64,000 nucleotides of DNA from Nitrospirales bacterium (GCA_050248735.1 JBFWRU010000005.1:39607-103606), one strand, 5' to 3'. Positions 24,338 through 50,868 are shown, numbered from the stretch's first letter. Notes: a model not told the origin generated them from the letters alone. Numbers and translations: made by a program.

Positions 24338-24353
24338 TGGCATCCCCCTTGCT
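24338..24353 (+). promoter_or_regulatory. Sigma-54 (-24/-12) promoter
   Basis: TGGCATCCCCCTTGCT has the GG-N10-GC spacing of consensus TGGCAC-N5-TTGCW. It lies 52 nt upstream of the ATG at 24406 and inside the over-extended ORF-track start (24277). Confidence 0.75.
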
Positions 24354-24405
24354 CATTCCTCGTCATAAAAGGAGAAGATCCTCATCCCTGACACAAGGAG
24401 ACCTT

Positions 24406-24927
24406 ATGCCATCCATTCCTACCGACAAGGCTGAGCCACGTGATCAATCAATTGAACTTTCAGCACATTCATCCTCGTCATATCCCGCTTCTTCATCCGT
24501 ACCCTTGACGGTACCAAATACCAAAGTCTGGCGCCCGACTACCTGGGGTGTCCTATTGGCCTCTCCTATTCTTTACGGGATGTTCATTCCGTTACTTTTC
24601 CTGGATCTTTCGTTGACCATTTACCATTGGACGGTCTTCCCACTTCTTCGAATTTCTCGTATTCAGCGTAGTACGTATATTCGTCTCGACCGCCATCGAT
24701 TGGCCTACCTTCCATGGATTGTGAAATTGACCTGTACCTATTGCGGATATGCCAATGGCCTGTTGCACTATGGGGTTCGACTAGCCGGCGACACCGAAGC
24801 CTACTTTTGCCCCATCAAGCATCAACTTCGCCAAGGCAAGTTTCATCCTCCTCCTCATCACCGACATTTTGCGCCTTTTGGCAATGCAAAGGAGTTTGAC
24901 GCGCTGTATCAACCGAAAAATACGTGA
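24406..24927 (+). CDS. Conserved hypothetical 2-TM membrane protein with a C-terminal Cys motif
   Basis: RBS AAGGAGA upstream of the ATG at 24406. It has hydrophobic helices and CTYCGYANG...YFCPIKH. The family is unnamed to me. Confidence 0.65.
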   Translation: MPSIPTDKAEPRDQSIELSAHSSSSYPASSSVPLTVPNTKVWRPTTWGVLLASPILYGMFIPLLFLDLSLTIYHWTVFPLLRISRIQRSTYIRLDRHRLAYLPWIVKLTCTYCGYANGLLHYGVRLAGDTEAYFCPIKHQLRQGKFHPPPHHRHFAPFGNAKEFDALYQPKNT

Positions 24928-25031
24928 TTTCCTTAAGGACATGGCTGGTCCCTCCGGCAAAACTATGTCCTCTCACGATAGGAATATGCTAAATAATGGT
25001 ATGAGTACCAGGGTCTAACCGAAAGGTCACG

Positions 25032-25994
25032 ATGGCCGAGAAAAAGCGGGACTACTACAGCGTGTTGGGCATCAGCAAAACGGCCGATGCCAAAGAGATT
25101 AAAAAAGCCTACCGGCGGTTGGCCCGCCAATATCATCCCGATCTCCATCCGGGAGCCAAAAAGACCGAAATGGAGGCTAAGTTTAAAGAATTAAACGAAG
25201 CCTTCGAAGTGCTGGGGGATGAGGACAAGCGGAAAAAATACGATCAATACGGGATGAAGTGGCAGGAGGCCGAAGCCTATGAACGGGCTCGCCAACAGGC
25301 CGGTGCCCGACAAGGTGGAGGCGGTTGGCAATATACGCAACCGGAAGGAGCAGAGGATTTTTCCCATGTCTTTGAAGAAATGTTCGGGGGACGTGGCCAG
25401 CAAAGCGGACCGTCCTTTCGCGGCTTTGCCATGCCGGGGGCCGATCTGGAAGCGACTATTCCGATCTCCATTCATGAAGCCTTTTCCGGCACCCGTCGAA
25501 TGCTGAACCTTCCGGATGCGTCAGGAAATCTTCATCCTATCGAGGTACGCATTCCCGCAGGCGTCCAGGAGAATGAACGGCTTCGGGTCAAAGGAAAGGG
25601 AGCCCCGGGCCGAGGCGGAGGGCCGAAGGGCGATTTACTCCTCTTGATTCATTTGATGCCCCATCCGGTCTTTCAGTACAAAGGCGGTGACATCATCGTC
25701 CACCTTCCCCTTTGGCCATGGGAAGCAGCCTTGGGCGTCGAAGTGCAAGTCCCCACGCTTTCGGGATCGGTCAAGATGAAGATCCCGCCAGGCAGCCAAC
25801 CTCATCAACCGTTACGATTACGGGGAAAAGGCCTTCCCAAACGAACCGGAGGGCACAACGATCAATTGGTCCTTCTCGATATCAGGATCCCTTCTTCCAT
25901 TTCCGAAGAAGAACGGCACCTGTATGAACAGTTAGCCAAGGGAACACACCCTGATCTTCGTTCCCACTTGCACCGTGAGGCCAGCCATGAGTGA
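25032..25994 (+). CDS. cbpA: DnaJ-class co-chaperone without zinc finger (curved-DNA-binding protein CbpA-like)
   Basis: J domain DYYSVLGISKTADAKEIKKAYRRLARQYHPD, a G-rich linker and two C-terminal beta domains. There is no CxxCxGxG repeat. Confidence 0.85.
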   Translation: MAEKKRDYYSVLGISKTADAKEIKKAYRRLARQYHPDLHPGAKKTEMEAKFKELNEAFEVLGDEDKRKKYDQYGMKWQEAEAYERARQQAGARQGGGGWQYTQPEGAEDFSHVFEEMFGGRGQQSGPSFRGFAMPGADLEATIPISIHEAFSGTRRMLNLPDASGNLHPIEVRIPAGVQENERLRVKGKGAPGRGGGPKGDLLLLIHLMPHPVFQYKGGDIIVHLPLWPWEAALGVEVQVPTLSGSVKMKIPPGSQPHQPLRLRGKGLPKRTGGHNDQLVLLDIRIPSSISEEERHLYEQLAKGTHPDLRSHLHREASHE

Positions 25995-26304
25995 AGATCC
26001 CGAACATCCTGACGAACCGATCACTGCGGAATTTTTCTCGGAAGGGTGGATACGACGCGAAGAAATCTGTACTCGCTTGGGGATTGGGGAAGACCTCTTG
26101 GAAGTGTGTCTCCAATGGGCCATCATTGAAACCCGGGAACCAGACCAGGAAGGCACGATCTTTTTTTCACTTGAGGACGTCGATCGCTTGAGCCAAGGAT
26201 TGCGATTGCATCGGGATCTGGGAATCAATTGGCCCGGGGTGTCGGTCGCCTTGTCCTTACTGGATCGCATTCGAGAACTCGAGCAACAGCAGGAACGTGG
26301 CTAG
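25987..26304 (+). CDS. cbpM: Chaperone-modulatory protein CbpM-like (MerR-like fold)
   Basis: The ATG at 25987 overlaps the cbpA stop by 8 nt. LRLHRDLGINWPGVSVALSLLDRIRELE is colinear with E. coli CbpM [22 protein letters not shown]. Confidence 0.75.
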   Translation: MSEDPEHPDEPITAEFFSEGWIRREEICTRLGIGEDLLEVCLQWAIIETREPDQEGTIFFSLEDVDRLSQGLRLHRDLGINWPGVSVALSLLDRIRELEQQQERG

Positions 26305-26432
26305 CCATTCAAGTCCCTTTTCAATCGTTTCACCTTCTCTGAAAGAGGACCGACCAGCTTCACCTCACTTTCATTATTGATCATTGTTTCTTTTCCCATT
26401 CATACAGTCCATTATTTTTTCTTGGAGGCTCT

Positions 26433-26852
26433 ATGTCCACACCTGACCTTCACAGCAAGGCCCGTGATCTCATGGAAACCCGCATTGTCGCCGTAACACG
26501 GCAGTACGGAGCACGCGATTTATCCATCCTCATTCAGTCTGGCAGGTTCAGCGGAGTTCCGGTTATCGACCCGGGGAACCACCTAGTGGGGGTAGTCACG
26601 GAATTCGATGTGCTCAAGGCGCTCCTCGCCAAAAAAGACCTGTTAACCCTCAAGGCCGAAGACATCATGTCGGCCAATCCCATTACGGTGAAAGAGACAG
26701 ATACCGCCGAACACATCGTCCAGCAAATGGTTGACCATCAAATTATTCGGATTCCGGTGGTACGGGAAGGCAGGTTGGTGGGGGTAATCTCCCGGACAGA
26801 TCTCTTAAATCATCTAGTCGCGTCAAATATGATCAATGTCTACGGAACTTAA
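26433..26852 (+). CDS. CBS-pair domain protein
   Basis: 139 aa with two CBS repeats (FSGVPVIDPGNHLVGVVTEFDV; IIRIPVVREGRLVGVISRTDL). Confidence 0.8.
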   Translation: MSTPDLHSKARDLMETRIVAVTRQYGARDLSILIQSGRFSGVPVIDPGNHLVGVVTEFDVLKALLAKKDLLTLKAEDIMSANPITVKETDTAEHIVQQMVDHQIIRIPVVREGRLVGVISRTDLLNHLVASNMINVYGT

Positions 26853-27498: not shown

Positions 27499-27947
27499 GT
27501 TTGAAACTTTTGGGATCATATTGGGATCATACGCAGATGGAAACTCCTGACAAGTCTTTTGATGTCTCATTTTTCATGAACCCGTTACATGAATTTTCGA
27601 AAAAGTTGATCTGAAATACCAAGGTGGGACCATTTCCGTCAACTATTGGAGGCAACCGTTGGCGACAGGAACATTTCCGGCATTTCAGGAGTATACTTCC
27701 AGGCAGGCATCGGCTAGGATTAGGTCATCCTTGAGAGAGGACTCATTCCGTATCTAAACGACGAGGACCTTTTTCTCCCCCGACCAAAAAGGTTCCTGAC
27801 CAGGCATCGGCATTCCGATCATCTCTTCAAATGGAGGTGAGGCCATATGCAACAGCGTCCCTTCCCCCGTTGCGGATTAATGAACCAGCGAATCAAATTT
27901 ACGGTCTGCACGGACTTGTTTTCCCTATATTTTTTGAACATGGCTTC

Positions 27948-32414: not shown

Positions 32415-33737
32415 TCACTTTTCTTTTTCCGCCGATGGGCAGGGAAGAGGCAAAGTCATCCCTTCCGGAAGACGGGTTCGGGAATCCAAACAAGCCCCAT
32501 TGAGTTGTTCCTGAGTGATTCCGTGGGCATATCGAAGCGCCACCCCCTGCAAGCGGCTTTTGTTCAAAGAGGCACCCTCCAGATTCGTCCCCCGCAAATC
32601 CACACCATACAATCCGGCTCCATCCAGCACGGCTTCCTGGAGATTCGCACGGAACAATATCGTATATTCCAAATTTCCTCCTGAAAGATCGGCTTCCACC
32701 AGATTGGTCCAGGACAAATCCGCAGCTTCCAAATTGGCGTCACGCAGGTTGGCTTTGGCTAAATAGGCCTCGTCCATTTCTGCCCGGGAAAGATTGGCCT
32801 GTTGGAAATTCACCCCTAAGAGATCCGCATCCTGAAAATTGGCTCCGGCACAATTAGCGTGATGCAAGTTCGCCTGATACAGCACCGCCCGCACGAGGGT
32901 GGCTTCTCGAAGAGTCGCCCCCTCAAGATTCACCTCAACCAAATTGGCCTCTCCCAAGTCGGCCCCGGACAAGTCTCCGCCGGAAACATCCGCCTCTTGA
33001 AAATTACTATGGCTGAGATCCGCCTCCGTCAATTTGGCGTTCCGTAACAAGGCCCGATACAAATTGGCTTGCCGTAAATCGGCTCGAACCAGATAGGCCT
33101 CTTCCAGGTTAGCCATTTCCAGATCAGCCCGGACCAAATAGGCCCCTTCCAGGTCGGCCCCGCGCAAGACACCCATCCGAACCTGCGTTTCTCCCAAATT
33201 AGCTTCCCGCAGATCCGCTCCGGCAAAATTCGCCTGACCTAAATCAGCTTTTCGCAAATTTGCCATTCGAAGATTGGCTCCGGTTGCCTGCCCGCCCCGC
33301 ATATTCGTGGAATACAGAGAAGCCTCCATGAGATTCGCTTTACGAAAATTGACATGGATCAAGATTGCCCCGGTAAAGTCGGCGTGTGAGAGGTTCGCTT
33401 CTTGAAAATTTAAGCCGCTTAAATTCTGTTCGCGAAAATCCGTTCCGGCCAAATCTGCGCCGCAGAGATTCGCCGGTTTTCCAATCTGATGGTGAGGGGA
33501 TTGAAGCCACAGGGCATGCTCCGCTAGAACACTCTTTAGCTCTTCAGGGGAAACCTGACGGCCTTGAAATTCTCCCGCACAAACGACAGAGTCCTCCCGG
33601 GAAGAGCCATCACCATTCAAATGATCCCCGTAAGCCGTAGTCGTCAACAAAACAGTGGCCAAGATTCCACCCCATATCGCATTTCGCCCTGATGCGTTAT
33701 GAAATCGCCAAGACAAACTCCCATTACTCTGTTTCAC
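32415..33737 (-). CDS. Exported pentapeptide-repeat protein
   Basis: 440 aa with a signal peptide (AIWGGILATVLLTTTAYG). A long uninterrupted run of A(D/N)LxX pentapeptides follows (ANLRKADLGQANFAGADLREANL...). Confidence 0.85.
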   Translation of the reverse strand: MKQSNGSLSWRFHNASGRNAIWGGILATVLLTTTAYGDHLNGDGSSREDSVVCAGEFQGRQVSPEELKSVLAEHALWLQSPHHQIGKPANLCGADLAGTDFREQNLSGLNFQEANLSHADFTGAILIHVNFRKANLMEASLYSTNMRGGQATGANLRMANLRKADLGQANFAGADLREANLGETQVRMGVLRGADLEGAYLVRADLEMANLEEAYLVRADLRQANLYRALLRNAKLTEADLSHSNFQEADVSGGDLSGADLGEANLVEVNLEGATLREATLVRAVLYQANLHHANCAGANFQDADLLGVNFQQANLSRAEMDEAYLAKANLRDANLEAADLSWTNLVEADLSGGNLEYTILFRANLQEAVLDGAGLYGVDLRGTNLEGASLNKSRLQGVALRYAHGITQEQLNGACLDSRTRLPEGMTLPLPCPSAEKEK

Positions 33738-33808: not shown

Positions 33809-34717
33809 TTAGGAATGTCTAACCACAAGAATCGAAAGCGGGGAATAGGTACTCACCCATTCGGATACACTGCCCATGGTAAAGCGTTCGACCCCTGAAA
33901 GCCCCTTCGACCCCAGACAAACGAGTCCTGCCTGTTGGTGCTCGGCTGCTTGAAGAATCTGATCGGGTGGATGCCCTTCCAGCAATGCCGTCGTCACCCG
34001 AAAGCCGACTTTTAAAAATTTCTCGCGATATTCTTTCAGAAGGTCCTGCGCACTCCGGCGTATGGGTTTCATCAGCGCCATCAGCTGCCGTTTCCCCAAA
34101 AGCTGCGAAGCCAGGTCCGTCAATCGGTCCGGAACAACTGAGACCAGGCACAGGGAAACCTCATCGGGATTCAACCAGGCTTGCACTATTCTCGCCGCAT
34201 ACGTTGAAGATTTGGATCCATCCAGGGCTATCATCACGGGAAAAGGAACGGACACGGGACCTTTCACCATAAATACCGAGCAGAGCGCGTGTGTCACCAA
34301 TTTCCGTGATACGCTCCCCAACAAATATCCGGGAACATCGCTGATCCCGCGGGAGCCCATAGTCAGACAATCCACCCCGGTCTTTTCGCTCCATTGAAGA
34401 ATCGTATCAGAAACATGGCCTTTCACAAGCATGAGCTTGATGACCGGCAAGGACCCCGTTCTTCCCTGGCCCAAGATTGTAGTCAGTCGTTCCGCACATC
34501 CGTGTAAAAGTTTTTTTCCTTGTTCTTGAATTTTTCTGGAAACTCCCGAGAGAACCTTGGTTTCCGACGCGGTCGGCTTTCTCCCCCGATGCACCACATG
34601 TGAATCCACCACATGCAATAAGATGATTTCTTTCACGCTGGATCTGAATAAGGAACCCATGCCTTGAATTGCCAAATGGGATACATCGGAATCATCAACA
34701 GCACATAGAATTTTCAT
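33809..34717 (-). CDS. Tandem universal stress protein (two UspA domains)
   Basis: 302 aa with MKILCAVDDSDVS, GSRGISDVPGYLLGSVSRKLVTHALCSVFMV, and a second domain GSKGLSGVERFTMGSVSEWV. Confidence 0.85.
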   Translation of the reverse strand: MKILCAVDDSDVSHLAIQGMGSLFRSSVKEIILLHVVDSHVVHRGRKPTASETKVLSGVSRKIQEQGKKLLHGCAERLTTILGQGRTGSLPVIKLMLVKGHVSDTILQWSEKTGVDCLTMGSRGISDVPGYLLGSVSRKLVTHALCSVFMVKGPVSVPFPVMIALDGSKSSTYAARIVQAWLNPDEVSLCLVSVVPDRLTDLASQLLGKRQLMALMKPIRRSAQDLLKEYREKFLKVGFRVTTALLEGHPPDQILQAAEHQQAGLVCLGSKGLSGVERFTMGSVSEWVSTYSPLSILVVRHS

Positions 34718-34784: not shown

Positions 34785-34800
34785 CGCACGAAGCCTGCCA
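34785..34800 (-). promoter_or_regulatory. Possible sigma-54 promoter (weaker -12)
   Basis: The minus strand reads TGGCAGGCTTCGTGCG with correct GG-N10-GC spacing. It lies 67 nt upstream of the Usp ATG at 34717. Confidence 0.3.
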
Positions 34801-35055
34801 AATCATGACAGAAACATGTTCCCCGTTTTTCCCAATCAATTAAGTATTTACCTGTTTTCTCGGTCAATCGACTGCACCGCAGGCTTGTCCCTTTTTGGGT
34901 CAGAGCCGACTCAGGTAACTGTAGCGTTTTTCCTCGAAAAACTATTCCCAGATAAACGATGAAATTTCAGCGGTTTCCTGCTCAAGGTTTGCTCAGACTT
35001 CTTGTACGCCTTATCGGGCACTTAACGGAAATCACCACGACATCCATTATTTTTT

Positions 35056-35071
35056 TGGCATTTCCTTTGCT
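35056..35071 (+). promoter_or_regulatory. Sigma-54 (-24/-12) promoter
   Basis: TGGCATTTCCTTTGCT lies 37 nt upstream of the ATG at 35109 and inside the over-extended ORF-track frame that starts at 34959. Confidence 0.75.
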
Positions 35072-35108
35072 GCTTCTCCCTTCAGGTCCCAATAAACGGT
35101 TTCTCGGA

Positions 35109-35675
35109 ATGAGCGAGCGACTTTTTCAACGCATTTTACTTCCCGTCGATTTTGCACCCTGTTCCAGGGAAGCCTTTCTGATGGGCCTCCGACTCGCACG
35201 ACAATTTCAATCCCAGGTTATTATTCTTCATGTGATTGACACCAAATCCCTGGATGCGTTGAATGCGCTGGGTCTCGCACTTCCCAGCGAAGAAAAAATC
35301 CAAAAAAAACGGCTCAACCATCAGGCCCGCCTGTTAGCGAGAGGTCTGCTGTCATTACCTGAAGCTAGGGGATTAAAGATGACCCGGATTCTGCGTGAAG
35401 GCAAACCGTTCGTGGAAATTGTCCGAACCGTCCGGGAGGAAAAAATCGACCTCGTGGTCATGGGAAGTTATGGAAGTCAGACGGGAGATATCAGTCATCT
35501 GTTCTTTGGCAGTACGGCTGAAAAAATTGTGCGAACGGTCACGTGTCCGGTGTTATGCATCCCCTATCCGTATCATAAATTACCGGTATTTTCGGATGTG
35601 AACCCAGTTCCTCCATCCACCAAATCAAAACCAAAGGTGAAGCGTCGCACGCGATCATCCGTTTCAGATGCATGA
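35109..35675 (+). CDS. Universal stress protein (single UspA domain with a basic C-terminal tail)
   Basis: MSERLFQRILLPVDFAP...GSYGSQTGDISHLFFGSTAEKIVRTVTCPVLCI. The start is chosen downstream of the sigma-54 promoter. Confidence 0.8.
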   Translation: MSERLFQRILLPVDFAPCSREAFLMGLRLARQFQSQVIILHVIDTKSLDALNALGLALPSEEKIQKKRLNHQARLLARGLLSLPEARGLKMTRILREGKPFVEIVRTVREEKIDLVVMGSYGSQTGDISHLFFGSTAEKIVRTVTCPVLCIPYPYHKLPVFSDVNPVPPSTKSKPKVKRRTRSSVSDA

Positions 35676-39167: not shown

Positions 39168-39498
39168 CGAACCGTCGGAGAAGCCCGTCAGGGAAGAGAC
39201 CGCCCTGGGCCGGCAGGTCGGGACAAAAGCGGCGCGCAAGATGAAGGCACAACGCCACACGACCCGGACCATCTGGTTCGGGTTGGGCATGATGGGGTTA
39301 ATCGGCTGGTCGGTGGCCATTCCGACACTGCTTGGCGCCATACTCGGTCTCTGGCTGGACCAACACTATCCCGGACCACATTCATGGACGCTCACACTGC
39401 TCTTCATCGGCCTGATCATCGGCTGTGTGAATGCGTGGCATTGGGTGACCAAGGAAGACAAGGAAATACGAGCGGAACAGGAGAATCACGATGAATGA
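39160..39498 (+). CDS. atpQ: N-ATPase accessory membrane protein AtpQ (AtpZ/AtpI-like)
   Basis: The ATG at 39160 overlaps the atpC stop by 8 nt. It has two TM helices (IWFGLGMMGLIGWSVAIP; LTLLFIGLIIGCVNAWHW). Confidence 0.75.
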   Translation: MSDEPSEKPVREETALGRQVGTKAARKMKAQRHTTRTIWFGLGMMGLIGWSVAIPTLLGAILGLWLDQHYPGPHSWTLTLLFIGLIIGCVNAWHWVTKEDKEIRAEQENHDE

Positions 39499-39805
39499 AA
39501 TGTTGAGTCTGGTCCCGGCGCTGATTGCAGGCATATTGCTCGGAGCAATGTTTTTCGGGGGCCTGTGGTGGACGGTTCGGAAAGGCATGTCATCCGCACG
39601 ACCGGCCCGTTGGTTCTTCGGCAGCCTGCTATTTCGAACGAGCCTCACCCTCGCTGGTTTCTATGTGGTCTCGGACGGCCATTGGGAAAGGCTGCTGATG
39701 TGCCTTGTTGGATTTACCATGGCCCGTCCGATCGTCACGCGACTCACCGGCTCAGACGAAAAAAAACCGCCCCGACTGACACAGGAGGCCGGCCATGCGC
39801 CTTAG
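39491..39805 (+). CDS. atpR: N-ATPase accessory membrane protein AtpR
   Basis: 104 aa with the GGLWWTVRKG motif and an intramembrane Arg, characteristic of AtpR. It overlaps atpQ by 8 nt. Confidence 0.8.
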   Translation: MNEMLSLVPALIAGILLGAMFFGGLWWTVRKGMSSARPARWFFGSLLFRTSLTLAGFYVVSDGHWERLLMCLVGFTMARPIVTRLTGSDEKKPPRLTQEAGHAP

Positions 39806-40496
39806 CCCGGACGACATTATTTTCTGGCAATACGGGTTCATCAAGCTGAATGCCACGATTATCGTCACGTGGGGATTGATGCTCGTGTTGGCGGTTGGAT
39901 CAACAGTCATTACACGCCACCTATCCACTGGCCTGAAACGTTCTCGCTGGCAGAATCTTCTGGAAATCGTCGTCACCGGCATTCAGAAACAAATTGAAGA
40001 GGTAGGCCTGCCTCATCCGCGCAGGTATCTCAGTTTTCTGGGAACGATCTTCCTGTTCATCGCGTTAGCCAGCCTCTGTACGATCATTCCCGGTTACGAG
40101 CCTCCGACAGGCTCCCTCTCGACCACGGTGGCCCTTGCACTGTGTGTGTTTATCGCCGTCCCGCTCTTCGGCATCGAGGAACAAGGAGTCGGCGACTATC
40201 TCCAGTCCTACCTGAAACCGACCGTCATCATGCTGCCGTTTAACATTATCAGCGAATTCTCCCGCACGCTGGCCCTGGCGGTCCGCTTGTTCGGTAATAT
40301 GATGAGCGGGGCGATGATCGTCGGCATCCTACTGACTATCACGCCCTTCATTTTCCCGATCGTCATGAGCCTGCTCGGTCTGCTCACCGGGATGGTGCAG
40401 GCCTATATCTTTAGCATCCTGGCCACGGTGTATATTGCGGCTGCCACACGAACACGGCAGTTGAAACCGGAACCCGATTCTGGAGCGCCGGATTGA
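39795..40496 (+). CDS. atpB: N-type F-ATPase subunit a
   Basis: 233 aa with LALAVRLFGNMMSG, which carries the essential stator Arg. Confidence 0.85.
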   Translation: MRLSPDDIIFWQYGFIKLNATIIVTWGLMLVLAVGSTVITRHLSTGLKRSRWQNLLEIVVTGIQKQIEEVGLPHPRRYLSFLGTIFLFIALASLCTIIPGYEPPTGSLSTTVALALCVFIAVPLFGIEEQGVGDYLQSYLKPTVIMLPFNIISEFSRTLALAVRLFGNMMSGAMIVGILLTITPFIFPIVMSLLGLLTGMVQAYIFSILATVYIAAATRTRQLKPEPDSGAPD

Positions 40497-40527
40497 AACC
40501 CCACTCTCAAACAACCAAGGAGATCCT

Positions 40528-40809
40528 ATGGATAGCATGACTCTGATTGCCATGGCATCAATTGTCACGGCTGGCCTCACCACCGGCGTAGGCTGCATTG
40601 GGCCGGCGCTGGGGGAAGGAAGAGCCGTTTCAGCAGCATTAACGTCGTTGGCCCAGCAGCCCGATTCCGCAAACACGATCACCAGGACACTGTTTGTCGG
40701 CCTGGCGATGATCGAATCTACGGCCATTTACTGTTTCGTGGTCTCGATGATTCTGATCTTCGCCAACCCCTTCTGGAATCACGTCCTCGCCCAGGCCGCA
40801 GGAAAGTAA
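40528..40809 (+). CDS. atpE: N-type F-ATPase subunit c
   Basis: 93-aa helical hairpin with GPALGEG (E30) and AMIESTAIY (E63, S64, T65, Y68). Confidence 0.85.
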   Translation: MDSMTLIAMASIVTAGLTTGVGCIGPALGEGRAVSAALTSLAQQPDSANTITRTLFVGLAMIESTAIYCFVVSMILIFANPFWNHVLAQAAGK

Positions 40810-40813
40810 GACA

Positions 40814-41605
40814 ATGTTAATTGACTGGTTCACCGTGGCGGCGCAGGCCCTTAACTTTCTCATCCTGGTCTGGTTATTGAAACGATTTCTGTACAAACCT
40901 ATCCTGAATGCCATTGACGCGAGGGAGAAACGGATCGCCGCCGAACTGGCAGACGCCGATGCGAAAAAAGCCGAAGCCCGACAGGAACGCGATGAGTTCA
41001 AACGCAAGAATGAAGCGTTCGACCAACAACGCACGGCCCTGTTCAGCCGGGCTGAGAACGAGGCTGCAGCCGAACGTCAGCGGCTTCTCGACGAGGCACG
41101 AAAGGAATCCGATAACTTACGCACCAAGTGGCAGAAGGCGTTGACAAACGAGTATCAAACCTTGAGCGATGAGCTCAGTCGCCGTACCCGGGAGGAAGTC
41201 TTTGCCATCGCACGAAAAACCTTGAGGGACCTCGCCACGCCGAGCCTGGAGGGACAGATGACCGACGCCTTCATCCGCCGGTTACGGGAACTCAGCAGGG
41301 AAGAACGAAAAGAGCTCCAGTCGGCATTCCAGGCCGGAGCCACGTCACCGATCATCCGCAGCACTATCGATCTTCCGTCAGCCCAGCGTCGGGAGTTAGA
41401 AGATGTGGTCAAGGATGTCCTGGCCATTGAGGCTCACGTTCAGTTTGAAACCGCCCCGGACTTGGTGAGTGGCATCGAATTCTCGGCCAATGGACATAAG
41501 ATTGCCTGGAGTATTGGACATTATCTCGCGTCACTCAAAAACAGTCTGGACGATTTTCTGAAGGAGCGCCCTAAAGCCAAGGCCGACGCACACCCTGAAG
41601 CATAG
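40814..41605 (+). CDS. atpF: N-type F-ATPase subunit b (long form; no separate delta gene)
   Basis: 263 aa with an N-terminal TM helix ([18 protein letters not shown]), a long charged coiled coil and an extended C-terminal domain. Confidence 0.8.
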
Positions 41606-41609
41606 ATCA

Positions 41610-43160
41610 ATGAGCCACGAACCTCACAGTCTGCAAAGTCTTTTCAATCACACGTTCGCTGAAATACGCCAGGAATGCGAACGCTTCGACCTCGGCATGA
41701 CTCCCCAGGAGGTCGGGAGGATCACGAACGTCTCCACCGGCATCGCCAGGGTTTCCGGCCTTCCCCGTGTGGGGGCTGACGAGGTGCTGAAATTTCCCCG
41801 CGATGTGTACGGCATCGCCTTCAACATCGATGAAGACGACATCGGCGTCGTCCTCCTTGGCGACTATTGGCATTTGCAGGCAGGAGATGAGGTCGAACGA
41901 AGAGGACACGTCATGGATGTGCCGGTGTGCGACGGATTGATCGGACGGGTCATTAATCCGCTGGGACGACCCCTGGACGGCCACGGACCGGTGATCTCCG
42001 GAAACCGCCTGCCGATCGAACGTCCAGCACCGCCCATCATGAATCGTGCACCCGTCACAATGCCGTTGCAAACCGGCATCAAGGTGATCGATGCCCTCAT
42101 TCCCATCGGACGCGGCCAACGCGAGTTGATTCTCGGTGACCGGCAGACCGGCAAGACCGCCATCGCGCTGGACACCATTCTTAACCAGCGGGACCAGAAT
42201 GTGTTGTGTGTGTATTGCGCCATCGGCCAGCGTGCGTCCGGCGTGGCGAAAGTCGTGGCCACCCTCCGCGAGCAGGGCGCGATGGCCTATACTATTATCG
42301 TGGTCACCGAAGGCAACGACCCGCCGGGACTTGCCTATATTGCCCCATACGCCGCCACCAGCATGGCGGAGCATTTCATGGAACAGGGCCGCGATGTGCT
42401 GATTGTCTATGATGACCTCACGCATCACGCTCGCGCCTATCGTGAACTCTCCCTGCTCCTGCGCCGACCTCCGGGTCGGGAAGCCTTTCCCGGCGACATC
42501 TTTTACATCCACTCGCGTCTGCTGGAACGTGCCACACATTTGCGCCGGGAATCCGGTGGCGGCTCCCTGACGGCACTGCCGATCATCGAGACCGAAGCGC
42601 AAAACATTTCCGCCTATATCCCGACCAACCTGATTTCCATCACGGATGGCCAGATCTACCTCTCGCCCACTCTGTTCGAACTCGGGGTCCTCCCTGCGGT
42701 TGATGTCGGTCGATCCGTTTCCCGGGTCGGAGGCAAGGCTCAACGAGCGGCCTACCGTGGTGTGACGGGAAATCTCAAGCTGGCCTATGCCCAGTTTGAA
42801 GAACTGGAAACCTTCGCCCGGTTCGGTGCCCGGTTGGACGACGACACCCGACAAATCATTGAGCACGGACGACGAATCCGCGCCTGTCTCAAGCAGCCGG
42901 AATCCGCCCCGGTATCCCTGCCGACGCAAATTCTCCTGCTTCTGGCCTTGACCGAAAAACTGTTTGATCCCGTGTCGATTGACCGGATTACGGAGGCGGA
43001 ACGTGCGTTAGACAAGGCAGCCCGTGACCTGCCGGCGGAGATGTGTACAAGGTTGGAAGCCCCGTCCAAACTGAATGATGAGGATCGTCAAACGCTGATC
43101 CGCCTCGCCCGCCAAGCCCTTGCCCCACTTCAGCTTTCACCGGGACTCGAGGAGGCATGA
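41610..43160 (+). CDS. atpA: N-type F-ATPase alpha subunit
   Basis: 516 aa with Walker [11 protein letters not shown] and [21 protein letters not shown]. Confidence 0.9.
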
Positions 43161-44047
43161 TGGGCGACACCCTGGTCAATTTGCGTCGGCAAATCGAAGG
43201 AGCCATGGATCTCCAATCCGTTGTTCGCACGATGAAGGCCTTGGCCGCTTCAAGCATCGGCCAATATGAACAATCTGTGAGCGCATTAGCCAATTACACC
43301 CGCACCGTGGAATTGGGGTTACGCGTCTGCTTCCGGGAAGATCCGGCTTTGGCTCTGATAGGAGAACAGAAAAGACCCAGTCAGACGGGAGGGATTGGAG
43401 CGGTGGTATTCGGTTCGGATCAGGGGTTGGTCGGTCAATTCAATGAAGTGATAGCCGATTATACGGTCACCACGCTTGCCGCTCTTCCCGGGCCATATCG
43501 AGTATGGGCGGTCGGCGAGCGGGTGCAGGCGCGCCTGGCAGACGCGGGTCTGCCCTTGAGTGGCTTTTTTCCCGTGCCGAATTCCGTCAGGGCCATTACT
43601 CCGCTTGTCGGGCAGATCCTCGTGGAAAGTGAAACACGGCGGAATCGTGGGGAGATCGCCGAACTCTACCTGTTCTATCATCGGCCCACATCGCGAGCAG
43701 GCTATGCGCCGGTCAATCAACGCCTGTTACCGCTGGACCGAAGCTGGCAACGCGAGTGGTCCGCACTCCCCTGGCCGACGGGGAATTTACCTGAGGTGTT
43801 CGGCAGCAGAACGACAATGTTGCGAGGGCTCATTCGCGAATATCTCTTCATTTCACTCTTCCGGGCATGTGCCGAATCCCTGGCCAGCGAAAACGCCAGC
43901 CGCCTGGCCGCGATGCAACGTGCCGACAAAAACATCGATGAACTGCTGGAAGATCTCAAGAGGCACTTCCACCAGTTGCGACAACGGGGGATCGACGAAG
44001 AGCTGTTTGACCTGATCTCCGGGTTTGAGGCCCTGACCAAAAAATGA
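43157..44047 (+). CDS. atpG: N-type F-ATPase gamma subunit
   Basis: 296 aa with the C-terminal helix [25 protein letters not shown], typical of gamma. ATGA overlap with atpA. Confidence 0.85.
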
Positions 44048-45086: not shown

Positions 45087-45980
45087 ATGATGCGCTTACA
45101 AGAAATTCGACGGGTATTGTGGTGGGTCTTATTCCTGAATGTTTTCGTGGCAGCAGCAAAATGGGGATATGGCGTACTCACCCATTCTCTGGCCATGCAA
45201 GCGGACGGCCTTCATTCCTTTTTTGATGGGCTATCCAATGTGGTGGGATTGATCGGGCTTTGGCTGGCCGCCCCTCCCCCGGATACCCAGCATCCCTATG
45301 GTCACAAGAAATTTGAAACGTTGGCGGCCGGCTCCATCGGCGGTTTTCTGATTCTGACCTCTTTCTATCTGTTATGGAAGGCCTATCGCTCATGGAGCAT
45401 GGACCTGCACCCTCAGGTGACCACCATCAGCTTTGTGGTCATGATTCTCACAATGGTCGTCAATATATTTGTGACGCGATGGGAACGCCGCAAAGGCCGG
45501 GAACTCAAAAGCGACATTTTGACAGCGGACTCTTACCATACTGCCAGTGATGTCCTGACCTCCATGTCGGTCCTGGCAGGCTTAATCGCGGTTCGGGCAG
45601 GTTATCCCGCCGTGGATTCTCTGATCGCCGTTCTGATTGCGGGGGTGATCGCCTGGACGGCCTATATGGTCTTCAAGGATGTCTTGGCGTCTTTAACCGA
45701 CGCGATCCGCCTGGATCCCCAGGACATTCACCTATTCGTGATGACCATACCGGGCATCTTGGATTGCCACGCAATCAGGACTCGCGGTCTGGCTCATCAT
45801 GTCTTTGTCGACCTGTCGATCCATGTCGATCCGGCATGGTCGGTTGAACAAGCCCACAGCCTGGCCAGTACGGTTGAAGAAGGGTTGATCGCCCATTTCG
45901 AGGCTGTGGAGGACGTGGTCGTCCACATTGAACCGGAAGGTCACTCGGATCCGTCGTCCAACGGCACGGAGATGGCCTGA
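45087..45980 (+). CDS. Cation diffusion facilitator (CDF) divalent-metal efflux transporter
   Basis: 297 aa with LAMQADGLHSFFDGLSN and HTASDVLTSMSVL (TM2/TM5 metal site), plus a C-terminal cytoplasmic domain. Confidence 0.85.
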   Translation: MMRLQEIRRVLWWVLFLNVFVAAAKWGYGVLTHSLAMQADGLHSFFDGLSNVVGLIGLWLAAPPPDTQHPYGHKKFETLAAGSIGGFLILTSFYLLWKAYRSWSMDLHPQVTTISFVVMILTMVVNIFVTRWERRKGRELKSDILTADSYHTASDVLTSMSVLAGLIAVRAGYPAVDSLIAVLIAGVIAWTAYMVFKDVLASLTDAIRLDPQDIHLFVMTIPGILDCHAIRTRGLAHHVFVDLSIHVDPAWSVEQAHSLASTVEEGLIAHFEAVEDVVVHIEPEGHSDPSSNGTEMA

Positions 45981-47914
45981 GGGTTGTATGTTGGAAGTGT
46001 GACAATAAATGTGGCCCCTTGCCCGGGCACACTGCTGATGCGAATGGCCCCCTCATGTTCTTGAATAATGCCATGGACCACAGTTAATCCCAGGCCTGTC
46101 CCCTCCCCAACCGGCTTCGTGGTAAAAAACGGATCAAAGACTTTCTTGGCACCCTCTTCGGACATGCCGCACCCTGTATCTTGCACGCTCAGCTCTACCA
46201 TCCTCCCGATAGGTCGAAGGTGCAGGGTCAAGGTACCTCCGTCAGGCATCGCCTGGCAGGCATTCAACACCAGATTCAAGAGAACCTGATTCATCTGATC
46301 TGGATCGGCACAGGCTCGCGGCAAGGAAGGAGCCTCCATCCGCTGAACCTGGATGCGCTGTTTTTCCAGCTTTTCTTGCAACACATCCAACACATCCGTC
46401 ACCACGGTCCGGAGATCCACCGCCCGTCGCTCTGAAGGCCGCCGTCGGGCAAAACTGAGTAACTGATTCATAATTTTTGTGATCCGCTCAACTTGGGTCA
46501 CAATGGTCGCCAACCCCGTTCGCGTATGTTCATCATTCGCTTTTCGCATGAGAAGTTCCGCTCGACCCAGGATGACATTCATCGGCGTCCCGATTTCATG
46601 AGCCATACCGGAGGCCAGCGTGCCCAATTCCGCCAACCGTTCCGTTTTCCGCAATTGAGCCTCCAGCATGCGCTCTTGCGTAATATCGATGATATACCCT
46701 TCGAGAGCCAGGACCGTCCCGGTTTCAGAGTAAATTCCACAGCCTTGCTCCCAGACCCATTTGATCGTCCCATCCGCCGTCCTAATCCGATAGGCAATTT
46801 GAAAAGGTCGTTTACTCTTTAACGCATCCTGCACTTCTTTATAAATCCTGCCGTAATCTTCCGGCGTAATCACATCCCTGCCGTACGAGAGAGGGTTGGC
46901 CCCCAGAAAGGCTTCAGAGGAATATCCTGTCAGGCTCTGACAACCGGCACCAATAAATTCCATAGTCCAATCCTCATCATTCCGGCACCGGTAGACCATT
47001 CCGGGCAGATTAGTGAGCAATGTGGACAAGGTGCGTTGAGTTTCCTGTAATTGCTGTTGCGTCTTGACTCGTTCGGTCAGATCCAGAATGATTTCGACAA
47101 AAAACTCTTTCCCCTCCTGGGACAAAGACTGTACATGTACTTCGACGGGGTAGGTCGTCCCATTTTTTCTCCTATGTGTCGCTTGGAAATCAACCTTTTT
47201 GCGGGCACCTTGTCTCAGAGGTTTGAGCATTTCCTCAAACGAATCCAATGTAAATTCTGACTTCAAGTCCAGCGGGGTCATTCTGGATAGTTCCTCCATG
47301 GAAAACCCCGTGTTATCGCGGGCGGCCTGGTTTGCCAGGGTGAAGACCAACGATTGGCTGTCCAACATATAGACTTCATTGATTGAATCATCCAGAATGC
47401 GTCCAAGCCGGGAAATATGATCTTCTTGAACTTTCCGTTGCGTGATATCGCGAAGAATGACCGTAAACCATTTTTTTCCCGAACGCTCCAACTGCGAAAT
47501 GGAGGCTTCCAGGGGAAATTCCTCCCCATCCAGACGAATCCCCTTAACTTCACGATAGGGATTCATTCGCCGGTTGCTCTCCCCGCCGACCGCAAATTGA
47601 TGAATGTGCGAATGGTGGACCTCCCGCAATGAGGGAGGAAGGAATTGATCCAGGGGTTTTCCCACCGCATCGTCAGCCGAACAGCGAAAGATTTGCTCGG
47701 CTGCCGCATTAAACAAGACCACCCGATGGTCCTCGTCTATCGTAATAATGCCATCCATCGCGGAATGGATGATGCCGGCTAATTGCAGCTCTAAAGCTTC
47801 CAGCCCTTCCCGGGTGTCCTGATGCATGGCCTGAATCGCATGTAGATTGGCCAGCTCCTGGCGAAGCGTATGAAGTTCATGTTCATGGTTTGGAGAACGT
47901 GGCGAGTCACTCAT
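45941..47914 (-). CDS. Multi-PAS sensor histidine kinase (NtrB-like, soluble)
   Basis: 657 aa with three PAS/PAC units, H-box ASGMAHEIGTPMN, N-box LLNLVLNACQAM and G-boxes DTGCGM / GEGTGLGL. Confidence 0.85.
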   Translation of the reverse strand: MSDSPRSPNHEHELHTLRQELANLHAIQAMHQDTREGLEALELQLAGIIHSAMDGIITIDEDHRVVLFNAAAEQIFRCSADDAVGKPLDQFLPPSLREVHHSHIHQFAVGGESNRRMNPYREVKGIRLDGEEFPLEASISQLERSGKKWFTVILRDITQRKVQEDHISRLGRILDDSINEVYMLDSQSLVFTLANQAARDNTGFSMEELSRMTPLDLKSEFTLDSFEEMLKPLRQGARKKVDFQATHRRKNGTTYPVEVHVQSLSQEGKEFFVEIILDLTERVKTQQQLQETQRTLSTLLTNLPGMVYRCRNDEDWTMEFIGAGCQSLTGYSSEAFLGANPLSYGRDVITPEDYGRIYKEVQDALKSKRPFQIAYRIRTADGTIKWVWEQGCGIYSETGTVLALEGYIIDITQERMLEAQLRKTERLAELGTLASGMAHEIGTPMNVILGRAELLMRKANDEHTRTGLATIVTQVERITKIMNQLLSFARRRPSERRAVDLRTVVTDVLDVLQEKLEKQRIQVQRMEAPSLPRACADPDQMNQVLLNLVLNACQAMPDGGTLTLHLRPIGRMVELSVQDTGCGMSEEGAKKVFDPFFTTKPVGEGTGLGLTVVHGIIQEHEGAIRISSVPGQGATFIVTLPTYNPQAISVPLDDGSE

Positions 47915-48048
47915 GGGTCAACTGGACTGTCGAGAACGACTAAGCCGATGCGGGGCGACATTACTCACAAAGCCACACACAGGTTGAAAGAAAGGATCCT
48001 ATCGCAACGGCCAGAATAGTGAAAGTCCCTGAACCAGGGGGGAGGTCT

Positions 48049-48064
48049 TGCAAGAAGGCACCCA
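48049..48064 (-). promoter_or_regulatory. Weak sigma-54-like element upstream of the PAS kinase
   Basis: The minus strand reads TGGGTGCCTTCTTGCA, with a perfect -12 TTGCA and correct GG-N10-GC spacing but a poor -24 (GGGTG). It lies 134 nt upstream of the ATG at 47914. Confidence 0.2.
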
Positions 48065-48116
48065 TGGGTTCCAGCGGGGCGGAGAGGCTGAATAAAGACT
48101 TATTCTTTTCTAAGTG

Positions 48117-49487
48117 TCACGAATCTTTATGTTCCATTTCGGCCAATTTCCGATAGAGGGTTTTTCGGTCAATGCCCAACACCTGAGCCGTTTGATATTT
48201 GTTGCCTCCCATTTTTTCCAGCACCCGTCTGATATACGCATGCTCCAGTTCGGCGAGGGGTAACATCTGCTCGGCGGCATCTTCAATGATCTGTCCTTCG
48301 CCCGTTATCTCCCGAATTCCCGAAGGCAGGTCGTCCAACACCACTTTCTGCCCCTGCGTCAGGGTCGCGGCCCGCTCAAGGACGTTTTCCAATTCCCGGA
48401 CATTGCCGGGCCAGTCATAATCCATTAACCGGGCCATGGCGGAATCAGCCACCCCCACCACCTGTTTTTCTTGAGCGGAAGGACTTTTCTGGAGGAGCCC
48501 GTGAGCTAACAGGGGAATATCCCCCCGTCGTTCCCGCAACGGCGGCAATCGAAGCTCAATCACGTTGAGTCGGTAATACAAATCCTCGCGAAACCGTTTG
48601 GCTTTCACCTCTTCCGCCAGTTTCACATTGGTCGCCGCAATGATTCGGACATTGATCGAAAGGGATTTGGTGGCCCCAACTCTCCGGATTTCCCGCTCCT
48701 GAACCGCTCGCAGCAATTTGGCTTGCAACATCATAGGCATTTCACTGATTTCATCAAGAAATAGAGTGCCGCCCTGGGCTTCTTCAAACAACCCGCGCTT
48801 ATCGGATTTCGCATCGGTAAAAGCCCCTCGCACATGACCGAACAATTCACTTTCCAACAAAGTTTCAGGAATCGCGGCACAATTCACCGGCACAAAAGGC
48901 GCTCCCCGCCGTTGACTATTGAAATGAATGGCCTTTGCCACTAATTCCTTTCCGGTCCCGCTTTCTCCCGTGATCAGAATATTGGTTTGAGAATCCGCAA
49001 CCCGGCGGATCAGATCAAAAATTTCTTTCATGGGCTTACTTTTTCCGAGAATCTGGTCAAAGGCATATTCCCGGCTGACCTGCTGGCGAAGTCGACGAAC
49101 CTCTTGCCGCAACAACGCCTCGTTCAGGGCCTTCCTGACAGTCACCAGCAATTCTTCGGTTTTAATGGGCTTGGTCAGATAATCAAAGGCCCCCTGCTTC
49201 ATGGCTTCCACTGCGGATTCAACCGTCCCAAAGGCAGTCATCATGACCAGATTGGTTTCAGGATGGATGCGTTGGATCTGCTCAAGCAAATCCAATCCCC
49301 CCATGCCTTTCATCCGCAAATCGGTTAACACCACAAGAAAATGCTCGTGTTCCATATGGTCAATCGCTTCTTGACCATCGGAGGCCACCTGGACGTAATA
49401 CTGTTCCTCCTCCAATAGTTCCTTGAGGAGATGTCGCATTTCTGGCTCATCATCCACGACCAAAATGTTGGGAGCCGATTGAGTCAT
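48117..49487 (-). CDS. Sigma-54-dependent response regulator (NtrC family: receiver, AAA+, Fis-type HTH)
   Basis: ILVVDDEPE...VVLTDLRMKGMGG, Walker A GESGTGKE, the sigma-54 contact loop GAFTDA, and the C-terminal HTH QTAQVLGIDRKTLYRKL. The ATG at 49487 is preceded by GAGGAA. The ORF track starts at 49526. Confidence 0.9.
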   Translation of the reverse strand: MTQSAPNILVVDDEPEMRHLLKELLEEEQYYVQVASDGQEAIDHMEHEHFLVVLTDLRMKGMGGLDLLEQIQRIHPETNLVMMTAFGTVESAVEAMKQGAFDYLTKPIKTEELLVTVRKALNEALLRQEVRRLRQQVSREYAFDQILGKSKPMKEIFDLIRRVADSQTNILITGESGTGKELVAKAIHFNSQRRGAPFVPVNCAAIPETLLESELFGHVRGAFTDAKSDKRGLFEEAQGGTLFLDEISEMPMMLQAKLLRAVQEREIRRVGATKSLSINVRIIAATNVKLAEEVKAKRFREDLYYRLNVIELRLPPLRERRGDIPLLAHGLLQKSPSAQEKQVVGVADSAMARLMDYDWPGNVRELENVLERAATLTQGQKVVLDDLPSGIREITGEGQIIEDAAEQMLPLAELEHAYIRRVLEKMGGNKYQTAQVLGIDRKTLYRKLAEMEHKDS

Positions 49488-49610
49488 GTTAGGTTCCTCG
49501 GAAGATGAATGATCGTTTTTGTGCATAATTTAAATCGGTCCGGTTTTTGGATGGTTTCTAAACAGGGGCCAAACAATCCCTTCACACAAACACTTCATCC
49601 GAACCACTCC

Positions 49611-49675
49611 ATTGGTGCAATTTGCCCCTAAAGGGAATCATATCCTGTTGCATAGTGCAACACCAATGCTTTGCA
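49611..49675. promoter_or_regulatory. Cluster of TGCAA/TTGCA half-sites (candidate activator-binding/UAS region)
   Basis: The cluster contains ATTGGTGCAA (49611-20), the palindrome TTGCAtagTGCAA (49648-60), TGCAA-N10-TTGCA (49656-75), and CACCAAT (49661-67), which is the reverse complement of ATTGGTG (49611-17). It lies about 100-165 nt upstream of the sigma-54 promoter at 49777. Confidence 0.3.
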
Positions 49676-49776
49676 TGTCCTCTTTTTTCAAGAAGTTTCT
49701 CCTTGGTCTCCAAAAGTGTGCTCAGAAATTCCCCGGTAGATCCCCTGGGGGATTGCAGGAAAACACCGTGGCGACA

Positions 49777-49792
49777 TGGCATTCGTCTTGCT
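49777..49792 (+). promoter_or_regulatory. Sigma-54 (-24/-12) promoter
   Basis: TGGCATTCGTCTTGCT lies 54 nt upstream of the ATG at 49847, divergent from the sigma-54 activator gene. Confidence 0.8.
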
Positions 49793-49846
49793 CTCGTCCC
49801 TTCCGATATGCCATACCAAGCTATTCAACTTTTCTGAAACTTGAAG

Positions 49847-50710
49847 ATGAAAATTATCCTAGCTACCGACGGCTCTCCCTGCTCAACCTTTGCCTTACAA
49901 ACCCTTGCACATTTTGCGCCCCCGGACGAATGTACGCTGGTCCATGCCCTCGCACTTCCCGATCTGAACTATCCCCTCATCACCCCTGACGTAAGGGAAG
50001 AAGCCCAACGGACCATCACCACTCAACTTCGCCAGGAAGGAGAGGAACTGCTGAGACAAGCCCGCGGTCAGATCCCTTCCGACTTTTCCAAAGTGGAATG
50101 TCTCCATCAAATCGGACATCCGGTGGACGTGATTCTGGAAACCGCCAAGTCCTCGCATGCCGATCTGATCCTTTTGGGGGCGAGAGGGCTCGGGCAGTTT
50201 CAAGAATTGATCCTAGGCAGCGTTTCTCACCGGATTGTGCTACATGCCCCATGTTCTACTCTCGTGGTGAAGGCGCCGATCAAACAGGTACAAAAAATTC
50301 TTCTTCCCATTGAAGGAGAAGAGGACGCCAGCATTGCTGTTCAGTTTTTAGGGTTACGGCCTTTCCGCCATGCGGTGGATATTCAGGTATTTAGTGTGTG
50401 GCCCCAACCACAACTCCCCTGGCCCACCACAGTCGGCCAATCTACAATCATGGAAACTCAGGCCTTGGAAGATGCTCAGAGCAAACTGGATGGGGTCACC
50501 CAACGCCTCCTGAAAATGAATTACGCCTGTCAGTCCCAGGTCGGATTAGGCAATCCGGCCTTGGCCATCATGGAACAGGCCAAATCCTTCCAGCCGGATC
50601 TGATTATGATGGGCACTCATCATCGCGGCGGACTCTCGCGGTTTCTCATGGGAAGTGTTTCCCATTCTCTTCATCATCAAACGAACTATCCGATTCTGCT
50701 TGTTCGATAA
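49847..50710 (+). CDS. Tandem universal stress protein
   Basis: MKIILATDGSPCS, GARGLGQFQELILGSVSHRIVLHAPCSTLVV, and a second domain GTHHRGGLSRFLMGSVSHSL. The ORF track starts at the TTG at 49841. Confidence 0.85.
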   Translation: MKIILATDGSPCSTFALQTLAHFAPPDECTLVHALALPDLNYPLITPDVREEAQRTITTQLRQEGEELLRQARGQIPSDFSKVECLHQIGHPVDVILETAKSSHADLILLGARGLGQFQELILGSVSHRIVLHAPCSTLVVKAPIKQVQKILLPIEGEEDASIAVQFLGLRPFRHAVDIQVFSVWPQPQLPWPTTVGQSTIMETQALEDAQSKLDGVTQRLLKMNYACQSQVGLGNPALAIMEQAKSFQPDLIMMGTHHRGGLSRFLMGSVSHSLHHQTNYPILLVR

Positions 50711-50852
50711 CGTCTCTCATCCCTGCCCGTTCGGCTTTGTGGCCATCTGCCACAGCTTTCCTCAAATTGAAAAAGCTTGAAAACGGTGGTCTATCCAAAT
50801 TCCCGTGAGTTTTCGTGTGGTTCTCTTTATGGATTTAGCCCCTGACCATCCA

Positions 50853-50868
50853 TGGCATATTGATTGCT
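50853..50868 (+). promoter_or_regulatory. Sigma-54 (-24/-12) promoter
   Basis: TGGCATATTGATTGCT lies 56 nt upstream of the hsp20 ATG at 50925. Confidence 0.8.

Follow-up and report, generated by a model that had tools for sequence, protein, structure and literature searches.

In Mycobacterium tuberculosis the DosS/DosT–DosR system governs a hypoxia regulon that is rich in Usp proteins, contains an alpha-crystallin small heat-shock protein and is served by a heme sensor kinase. At glnAp2 of enteric bacteria, NtrC has two 17-bp dyads that are about three helical turns apart and ~100–140 bp upstream of the -24/-12 promoter. Here we compare these systems, along with FixL/FixJ and the NmpRSTU system of Myxococcus xanthus, with a sigma-54 locus of a Nitrospirales bacterium in which the genes for an NtrC-type activator and a histidine kinase lie close to usp and hsp20 genes. 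The stretch of DNA analysed (the window) is 64 kb long and corresponds to G000:C5:39607-103606, where G000 is the host genome, a metagenome-assembled genome of 4.24 Mb and 50% GC from a nitrite-oxidising member of the Nitrospirales, family Nitrospiraceae, and C-numbers are its contigs; G001 is a relative of the same genus. Positions given without a contig are those of the window.

The likeness to the DosR regulon is one of output (many Usp proteins and an alpha-crystallin protein) and of a heme sensor kinase, putative in the host. DosR, however, is a NarL-type regulator that acts at sigma-70-type promoters and has GAF sensors, whereas the host has a sigma-54 activator and a PAS kinase, and there is no homology between the regulators or their sites. 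The NtrB/NtrC pair at glnAp2 is alike in the REC-AAA+-HTH_8 architecture of its activator and in the spacing of the paired dyads, but NtrC differs from the host activator in signal, site and targets, and the host protein has a GAFTDA loop and an NtrC score of 430 against a cut-off of 559. FixL/FixJ of rhizobia is comparable in the heme domain of FixL, which a PAS domain of the host kinase resembles, in an aligned proximal histidine and in the kinase activity expected at low O2, although FixJ is LuxR-type whereas the host partner is an NtrC-type sigma-54 activator. The closest working analogue is NmpRSTU, in which an NtrC-like regulator acts at sigma-54 promoters with paired dyads under oxygen limitation; a single-domain Usp, a CBS protein and respiratory functions are among its targets, and a heme-based oxygen-sensing kinase starts the signal (PMC11841059). 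The NmpR site is GCGCA-N5-TGCGC, compared with TGTAGCA-N3-TGCTACA in the Nitrospirales host, and the globin-coupled kinase NmpU signals by a phosphorelay through the hybrid kinase NmpS, compared with a single adjacent PAS kinase in the host (PMC11841059). The host targets also differ from the NmpR regulon in hsp20, a group 3b hydrogenase, an N-ATPase and an alternative pyruvate:ferredoxin oxidoreductase (alt-POR), and the host activator, at 47–48% identity, is no closer to the Myxococcota proteins than to its own paralogues (43–46%). The host system resembles NmpR mechanistically but is not an NmpR member; as we read it, it is a two-component sigma-54 regulon in which the binding site and the set of targets are new and the activator loop is a variant.

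We put at about 0.7 the probability that the promoters at 35056, 49777 and 50853 form one regulon with the neighbouring activator and kinase, the activator putatively binding a dyad that the three have in common. The features concerned are given below; domain calls on the window proteins are from Pfam and NCBIfam scans, and dyads were scored with a position weight matrix (PWM) that was trained on relatives' sites alone and then applied to the host genome.

24338..24353, + strand: sigma-54 promoter TGGCATCCCCCTTGCT, exact match; motif end to ATG at 24406, 52 nt
34886-34902, no strand: enhancer dyad (upstream activator site) TGTCCCTTTTTGGGTCA, PWM 10.3; centre 163 nt upstream of the 35056 GG
34920-34936, no strand: enhancer dyad (upstream activator site) TGTAGCGTTTTTCCTCG, PWM 8.3; centre 129 nt upstream of the 35056 GG
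35056..35071, + strand: sigma-54 promoter TGGCATTTCCTTTGCT, exact match; motif end to ATG at 35109, 37 nt
45941..47914, - strand: sensor histidine kinase (PAS x3, HisKA, HATPase; Pfam/NCBIfam), adjoining the activator gene
48117..49487, - strand: NtrC-family activator (REC-AAA+-HTH_8, Pfam), proposed regulator
49613-49629, no strand: enhancer dyad TGGTGCAATTTGCCCCT, PWM 14.6; centre 157 nt upstream of the 49777 GG
49646-49662, no strand: enhancer dyad TGTTGCATAGTGCAACA, perfect palindrome, PWM 17.7; centre 124 nt upstream of the 49777 GG
49777..49792, + strand: sigma-54 promoter TGGCATTCGTCTTGCT, exact match, divergent from the activator gene; motif end to ATG at 49847, 54 nt
50738-50754, no strand: enhancer dyad TGTGGCCATCTGCCACA, PWM 18.4; centre 108 nt upstream of the 50853 GG
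50853..50868, + strand: sigma-54 promoter TGGCATATTGATTGCT, exact match, kept across genera; motif end to ATG at 50925, 56 nt

The four exact matches to TGGCAT-N5-TTGCT in the window (24338, 35056, 49777 and 50853) had been reported in an annotation made from the sequence alone (the first-pass annotation), which saw in them the promoters of a compact sigma-54-dependent stress regulon of Usp, Hsp20 and CbpA/CbpM. They were found again, all on the + strand and each with GG and GC dinucleotides 10 nt apart, as in TGGCAC-N5-TTGCW; in 100 dinucleotide-preserving shuffles of the window the mean was 0.04 matches, and none reached four. The sites are intergenic, on the coding strand and 37–56 nt before start codons, as had been described, and the two said to fall within over-extended open reading frames (ORFs) do so (24338 in 24277..24927 and 35056 in 34959..35675). 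Pfam supports the identities then given to the downstream genes (cbpA-cbpM, usp, tandem usp and hsp20). Absence of rpoN had been named as fatal to the proposal; the gene is present, with a Sigma54_DBD match of 199 bits within a 512-aa open frame (G000:C3:93896-94378). A genome scan for the motif, which had also been called for, was made with exact patterns and found 19 strict TGGCAT-N5-TTGCT sites in 4.24 Mb, compared with about 2 expected, four of them inside the 64-kb window that makes up 1.5% of the genome (Poisson estimate, P ~2e-4). With TGGCAY-N5-TTGCW there are 26 sites, 24 of which lie between ORFs or at the 5' border of an ORF on the same strand, judged by a crude ORF map that covers ~88% of the sequence. 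Given the presence of rpoN, the strong enrichment of the motif across the genome and its almost solely intergenic position, we regard all four sites as very probably real sigma-54 -24/-12 promoters. One could still hold that they are chance or non-functional matches and that the genes are read from sigma-70 promoters, a simple sigma-70 scan being uninformative for the host, but the excess over shuffled sequence, the non-coding position of 24 of the 26 genomic sites, the presence of rpoN and the invariance of the motif across families while its flanks diverge make this highly improbable.

The genes behind the genomic sites, which from a reading of their translations without a family search we take to be those for FlgB, FliL, a flagellar rod protein, Hcp, VgrG, an RpoD-like sigma factor, two epimerases and a multicopper oxidase, make up a typical sigma-54 repertoire. 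The presumed RpoD-like gene encodes a 505-aa protein behind an exact promoter at C17:27616 (-), an arrangement that suggests a sigma-factor cascade. Another activator gene (G000:C7:177353-178521) lies directly upstream of the exact promoter C7:178506, which faces a large multicopper oxidase gene and has a best dyad score of 10.3. A fifth window site with one mismatch, at 13920 (TGGCATTCTCTTTGCG), lies within a 1052-aa RND transporter ORF and was set aside as a chance match.

What sets the promoters at 35056, 49777 and 50853 apart is a shared enhancer dyad of consensus TGTAGCA-N3-TGCTACA, with centres 108–163 nt upstream of the GG. When 80–200 nt was taken as the range for upstream activator sites, conserved dyads were present at these three promoters and none was identified at 24338. 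Where dyads are paired, their centres are 33–34 bp apart, about three helical turns. In random 200-nt windows a PWM score of at least 14.6 occurs in 0.07%, of at least 10.3 in 1.3% and of at least 7.7 in 6%; the other 21 exact promoters mostly have dyad scores below 6, with exceptions at 10.3, 9.9 and 7.7. The palindrome TGTNGC-N5-GCNACA occurs three times in 4.24 Mb; two of the three, including that at 50738, lie 98 and 114 nt ahead of promoters of this group.

Conservation of the three loci is extensive. The 49777 promoter is kept in about 14 orthologous loci, and an alignment of the activator/tandem-usp intergenic region from 19 relatives, with activators 66–93% identical, shows one or two dyads (TGTAGCA-N3-TGC..CA), then the -24/-12 element and then the Usp start (MKII..DGS), all kept across genera. 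Upstream of the single usp, TGGCA and TTGC of the 35056 promoter are invariant in 11 orthologous loci from three families; both dyad blocks are likewise kept upstream of usp orthologues in three families, CTGTAGC being nearly invariant, and the sister-family single-usp loci carry two clear TGT.GC-N5-GC.ACA palindromes. At hsp20 the upstream half-site TGCTACA is kept across genera, the dyad of a metagenome relative is the perfect TGTAGCAGATGGCTACA, and promoter and dyad are also kept on a metagenome contig with an activator 83% identical.

The first-pass annotation had singled out the 48117..49487 protein as the only sigma-54 enhancer-binding protein in the window, with a GAFTDA loop and a multi-PAS kinase gene next door, and each of these points held: it has the sole strong Sigma54_activat match there, the loop was confirmed, and the gene at 45941-47914 (-) encodes a histidine kinase with three PAS domains. 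Its Pfam domains are Response_reg (8-117), Sigma54_activat (146-312) and HTH_8 (411-450), and its sigma-54-contacting L1 loop GAFTDA, at residues ~221-226, is unique to it among 24 loops from a loop-motif scan of the host genome. The D is kept in all eight orthologues read (69–94% identity), as GAFTDA in seven and GSFTDA in one. Clear orthologues occur in 27 of 40 relatives (61–93% identity along all or most of the length) and two more are partial (74–76%), while the next-best activator paralogues are about 43–50% identical. The protein falls below every NCBIfam equivalog cut-off (AtoC, NtrC, ZraR, GlrR, LuxO), the best being AtoC with 496 against 714. We note a weak sigma-54-like site, TGGGTGCCTTCTTGCA, on the - strand within the 202-nt activator/kinase gap (47915-48116).

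The first PAS domain of the kinase (PAS-1, ~residues 38-167) is FixL/DosP-like. Of the 14 PDB sequence matches obtained with the N-terminal 420 residues, 13 are FixL or DosP heme domains, and every match within PAS-1 is a heme-PAS oxygen sensor, either FixL of Bradyrhizobium or Sinorhizobium or E. coli DosP. Residue H100 aligns with H200, the proximal heme ligand in B. japonicum FixL, and an equivalent of H100 is kept in three orthologues (from the metagenome relative, genus g11 and a sister family) that span three genera and two families. The g11 kinase is minimal, consisting of a PAS-1-type domain and the kinase core, and because it keeps just that PAS domain we consider PAS-1 the conserved sensor. 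The signal of the regulon is thus likely to be oxygen, with the kinase as a putative heme-binding O2 sensor, and the stress role first assigned to these genes can be kept if narrowed, with oxygen limitation as the likely signal.

A published proteome bears on this. Bayer et al. (ISME J 2021, PMC8115632) compared Nitrospira marina at atmospheric and low O2, and consecutive IMG genes in their Data Set 3, from which all the fold changes given here are taken, match the host locus in annotation and length. At low O2 the tandem Usp adjacent to the NtrC-type regulator (293 aa) rose 263-fold, the NtrC-type response regulator itself (455 aa) 4.1-fold and the PAS kinase (651 aa) 7.1-fold; a pentapeptide protein (414 aa) rose 70-fold, a Usp of 302 aa 15-fold, and the N-ATPase 18-fold (beta), 87-fold (subunit B) and 7.5-fold (alpha) (PMC8115632). 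Also increased were a cupredoxin-size hypothetical protein (141 aa, 24-fold), a hypothetical protein of 455 aa whose host counterpart is a 452-aa protein (34-fold), HydB (24-fold), HydA (6.3-fold) and a Usp of 288 aa (5.7-fold) (PMC8115632). Of the 93 proteins induced at low O2, the most significant was a multicopper oxidase, at 16-fold (PMC8115632).

Beyond the window, a search for strong dyads that have a relaxed sigma-54 site in the correct geometry identified a dyad at C5:121700 with a site at C5:121581(-), upstream of a four-gene alt-POR cluster followed by a tandem usp, and a dyad at C7:133450 with a site at C7:133563, upstream of three small membrane/cytochrome genes, a tandem usp and the gene for a 900-aa protein. 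A further candidate, C7:53148, has an ABC gene on one side and an Mla-like operon on the other. In N. marina the alt-POR subunits D, B, A and C rose 10–34-fold and a PlsC-domain protein of 900 aa rose 65-fold (PMC8115632). Judged from their dyads and sites, at least the two promoters C5:121581(-) and C7:133563 probably belong to the regulon. With the C7:53148 candidate outside the comparison, all dyad-linked units have induced N. marina orthologues and the dyad-less 24338 unit does not. The main text of PMC8115632 makes no mention of sigma-54, NtrC or promoters, and the paper names no regulator, suggesting the Usp proteins as possible ones; literature searches found no description of such a circuit in Nitrospira.

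That the activator is the only one in the window is weak evidence by itself, because the host genome has ~29 sigma-54 activators (enhancer-binding proteins). The same number leaves room for another regulator to bind the dyad, with promoters and dyad real but the adjacent pair controlling just the divergent usp or something else. In N. marina a 645-aa Fis-family regulator rose 5.3-fold, and for other units induced at low O2 (multicopper oxidase, T6SS) the sigma-54 promoters have different activators next to them. However, in most orthologous loci, across genera, the strongest dyads lie between the activator gene and its divergent neighbour, and the activator's C-terminal HTH region is highly conserved among orthologues, matching the conserved dyad. 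The single-usp and hydrogenase loci also stay linked to it: the single usp is 4–5 kb from the activator in several genera and hydG is within 7–13 kb, and 12 of 20 genomes with an activator orthologue also have a single-usp orthologue, compared with none of 10 without (Fisher test, P ~0.0015, kinship ignored). We consider control by another regulator unlikely, and favour binding of the dyad by the adjacent activator.

The 24338 promoter is a different case. Its unit is as follows.

24406-24927, + strand: 173-aa membrane protein without a family match (Pfam/NCBIfam scan)
25032-25994, + strand: cbpA (DnaJ and DnaJ_C, Pfam)
25975-26304, + strand: cbpM (MerR_2, Pfam)

The inclusion of this unit, so that all four promoters would answer to the adjacent activator, has in its favour an identical strict core in all four, their clustering within 27 kb, and a weak dyad-like sequence, AGTCCTAAAATACCCCA, at a fitting distance (110 nt upstream of 24338). 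It is nevertheless doubtful, if a little less so than control by another regulator. AGTCCTAAAATACCCCA, the best dyad-like site there, is not kept in G001, and no shared dyad was identified upstream of 24338, where the best PWM score of 7.7 is reached by 6% of random 200-nt windows. The promoter is confined to the genus, being kept only in G001 (as TGGCACCCTCCTTGCT), and the 173-aa gene is missing from most relatives. N. marina CbpA rose 1.8-fold, which was not significant (PMC8115632). A CBS-domain protein did rise 4-fold in N. marina, and a CBS-domain gene (Pfam) comes after cbpM in the window, but the N. marina gene is 8 gene numbers from cbpA and may not be the orthologue. Because there is no dyad above chance, conservation is within the genus only and CbpA showed no significant change, we set 24338 apart from the regulon; its promoter is probably served by a different one of the ~29 activators. 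Of the regulon first proposed, the usp and hsp20 part is thus upheld through the shared dyad and the cbpA-cbpM part is not. Nor does "compact" describe it, as it would also cover operons outside the window and, within it, NhaP, the N-ATPase, a cupredoxin, the 452-aa protein and the group 3b hydrogenase.

No GG-N10-GC motif was found in the 104-nt gap between the 173-aa gene and cbpA. Just upstream of the 24338 promoter is an RlaP-family nucleotidyltransferase gene (23500-24180, Pfam); members of the family have been tied to RNA repair by the Rtc pathway, itself under sigma-54 control in enteric bacteria. A dyad-like site, TGAGGCCATATGCAACA, lies at 27838-27854, where a 111-aa ORF beside a PagL gene begins; it scored 14.8 with the first matrix, and no sigma-54 site is in range of it.

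Several points weigh against the assignment of the three promoters to the neighbouring pair and against oxygen as its signal. With ~29 activators in the genome, the 48117-49487 protein is just the predicted binder of the dyad, and its L1 loop is GAFTDA, not GAFTGA. No sigma-54 promoter that would account for induction of the activator gene was found upstream of it. The 35056 dyads score just 10.3 and 8.3 in the host, so that their assignment leans mainly on conservation. Turning to the kinase, PAS homology and the proximal histidine are as in FixL, but R121, which aligns with FixL R220 in the host and in L135, is replaced by glycine in the distant G013 and G031 orthologues, and the FixL equivalog model gives 212, far short of its cut-off of 850. 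The link to N. marina is one of gene order, annotation and protein lengths (one relative, G017, was seen to have its genes arranged differently); a Usp of 320 aa, from the counterpart of the hsp20-to-hydB string, rose just 2-fold there, which was not significant, and the gene at the hsp20 position was undetected in the proteome (PMC8115632).

We propose the following scheme. Falling O2 would leave the heme domain of the cytoplasmic kinase (45941-47914) unliganded and the kinase active, the FixL-like PAS domain being the probable sensor. The active kinase would then phosphorylate the receiver domain of the NtrC-type activator (48117-49487), which may oligomerise on the TGTAGCA-N3-TGCTACA dyads, one or two per promoter, and by ATP hydrolysis would open the sigma-54 closed complex. 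The predicted output comprises Usp proteins, the small heat-shock protein, the cupredoxin, the group 3b [NiFe] hydrogenase, the Na+ N-ATPase and the alt-POR, and may amount to a survival programme under low oxygen and low energy.

The genes downstream of these promoters, and those of a divergent unit, are listed here.

32415-33737, - strand: pentapeptide gene, faced by the 34785..34800 site
33809-34717, - strand: divergent tandem usp, faced by the 34785..34800 site
34785..34800, - strand: candidate weaker sigma-54 promoter TGGCAGGCTTCGTGCG, GG and GC kept in G001
35109-35675, + strand: single-domain usp (Pfam)
35893-37065, + strand: CPA-type Na+/H+ exchanger, NhaP (Pfam)
37248-44047, + strand: N-type (Na+) ATPase operon, complete, with beta and epsilon first (Pfam)
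49847..50710, + strand: tandem Usp gene, 287 aa (Pfam)
50925-51380, + strand: hsp20 (Pfam)
51518-51949, + strand: cupredoxin (Pfam)
52065-53027, + strand: tandem usp (Pfam)
53045-54403, + strand: 452-aa unknown protein (ORF)
54418-55539, + strand: hydB (Pfam/ORF)

The usp, Na+/H+ exchanger and N-ATPase operon are probably read together from the 35056 promoter, no GG-N10-GC motif being found in its two larger gaps, of 217 and 182 nt. Similarly, there is no sigma-54 motif in the two longer gaps (137 and 115 nt) of the string from hsp20 to hydB, in which terminator-like matches are no commoner than in shuffles, and these results are consistent with long transcripts across the proposed operons. 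The 34785..34800 (-) site is a putative promoter of the tandem usp and the pentapeptide gene, the N. marina orthologues of which are the Usp and pentapeptide protein that rose 15-fold and 70-fold, and it and the 35056 promoter could share the 34886/34920 dyads as a bidirectional enhancer.

The N-ATPase operon looks like an insertion into the regulon locus, because a metagenome relative is without the operon at the same position. Ahead of hydG there is a sigma-54-like site, TGGCTCTGAATTTGCT, at 62663-62678 (+), kept in G001, and a dyad-like sequence, TGAGGCGAAATGCTACA, at 62713-62729 (score 16.9), ~57 nt downstream of the GG of that site and kept in G001 and G002. The two were rejected as a standard promoter/enhancer pair, as a dyad downstream of the promoter does not fit the usual layout, and a by-eye search for an alternative promoter downstream of the 62713 dyad or on the other strand found none.

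We lean slightly towards a broader view, in which this is a low-oxygen, dormancy-like regulon, widespread among the Nitrospiraceae and present also in two sister families, that is built from a FixL-like heme-PAS kinase, an activator with a lineage-specific GAFTDA loop and TGTAGCA-N3-TGCTACA and that induces together the Usp proteins, the small heat-shock protein, the Na+ N-ATPase, the group 3b hydrogenase and an O2-sensitive alt-POR, and in which the "UspA-regulated gene clusters" of N. marina are its cargo. The proposed circuit of kinase, activator, motif and promoters covers most of the strongly induced usp-adjacent clusters of the N. marina study and offers a likely mechanism behind the low-oxygen response published for that organism. 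With the dyad motif, the low-oxygen regulon of uncultured Nitrospirales could be predicted from their genomes. Nitrite oxidation in soils, oceans and wastewater plants is dominated by Nitrospira, whose survival at low oxygen affects nitrogen loss and process control.

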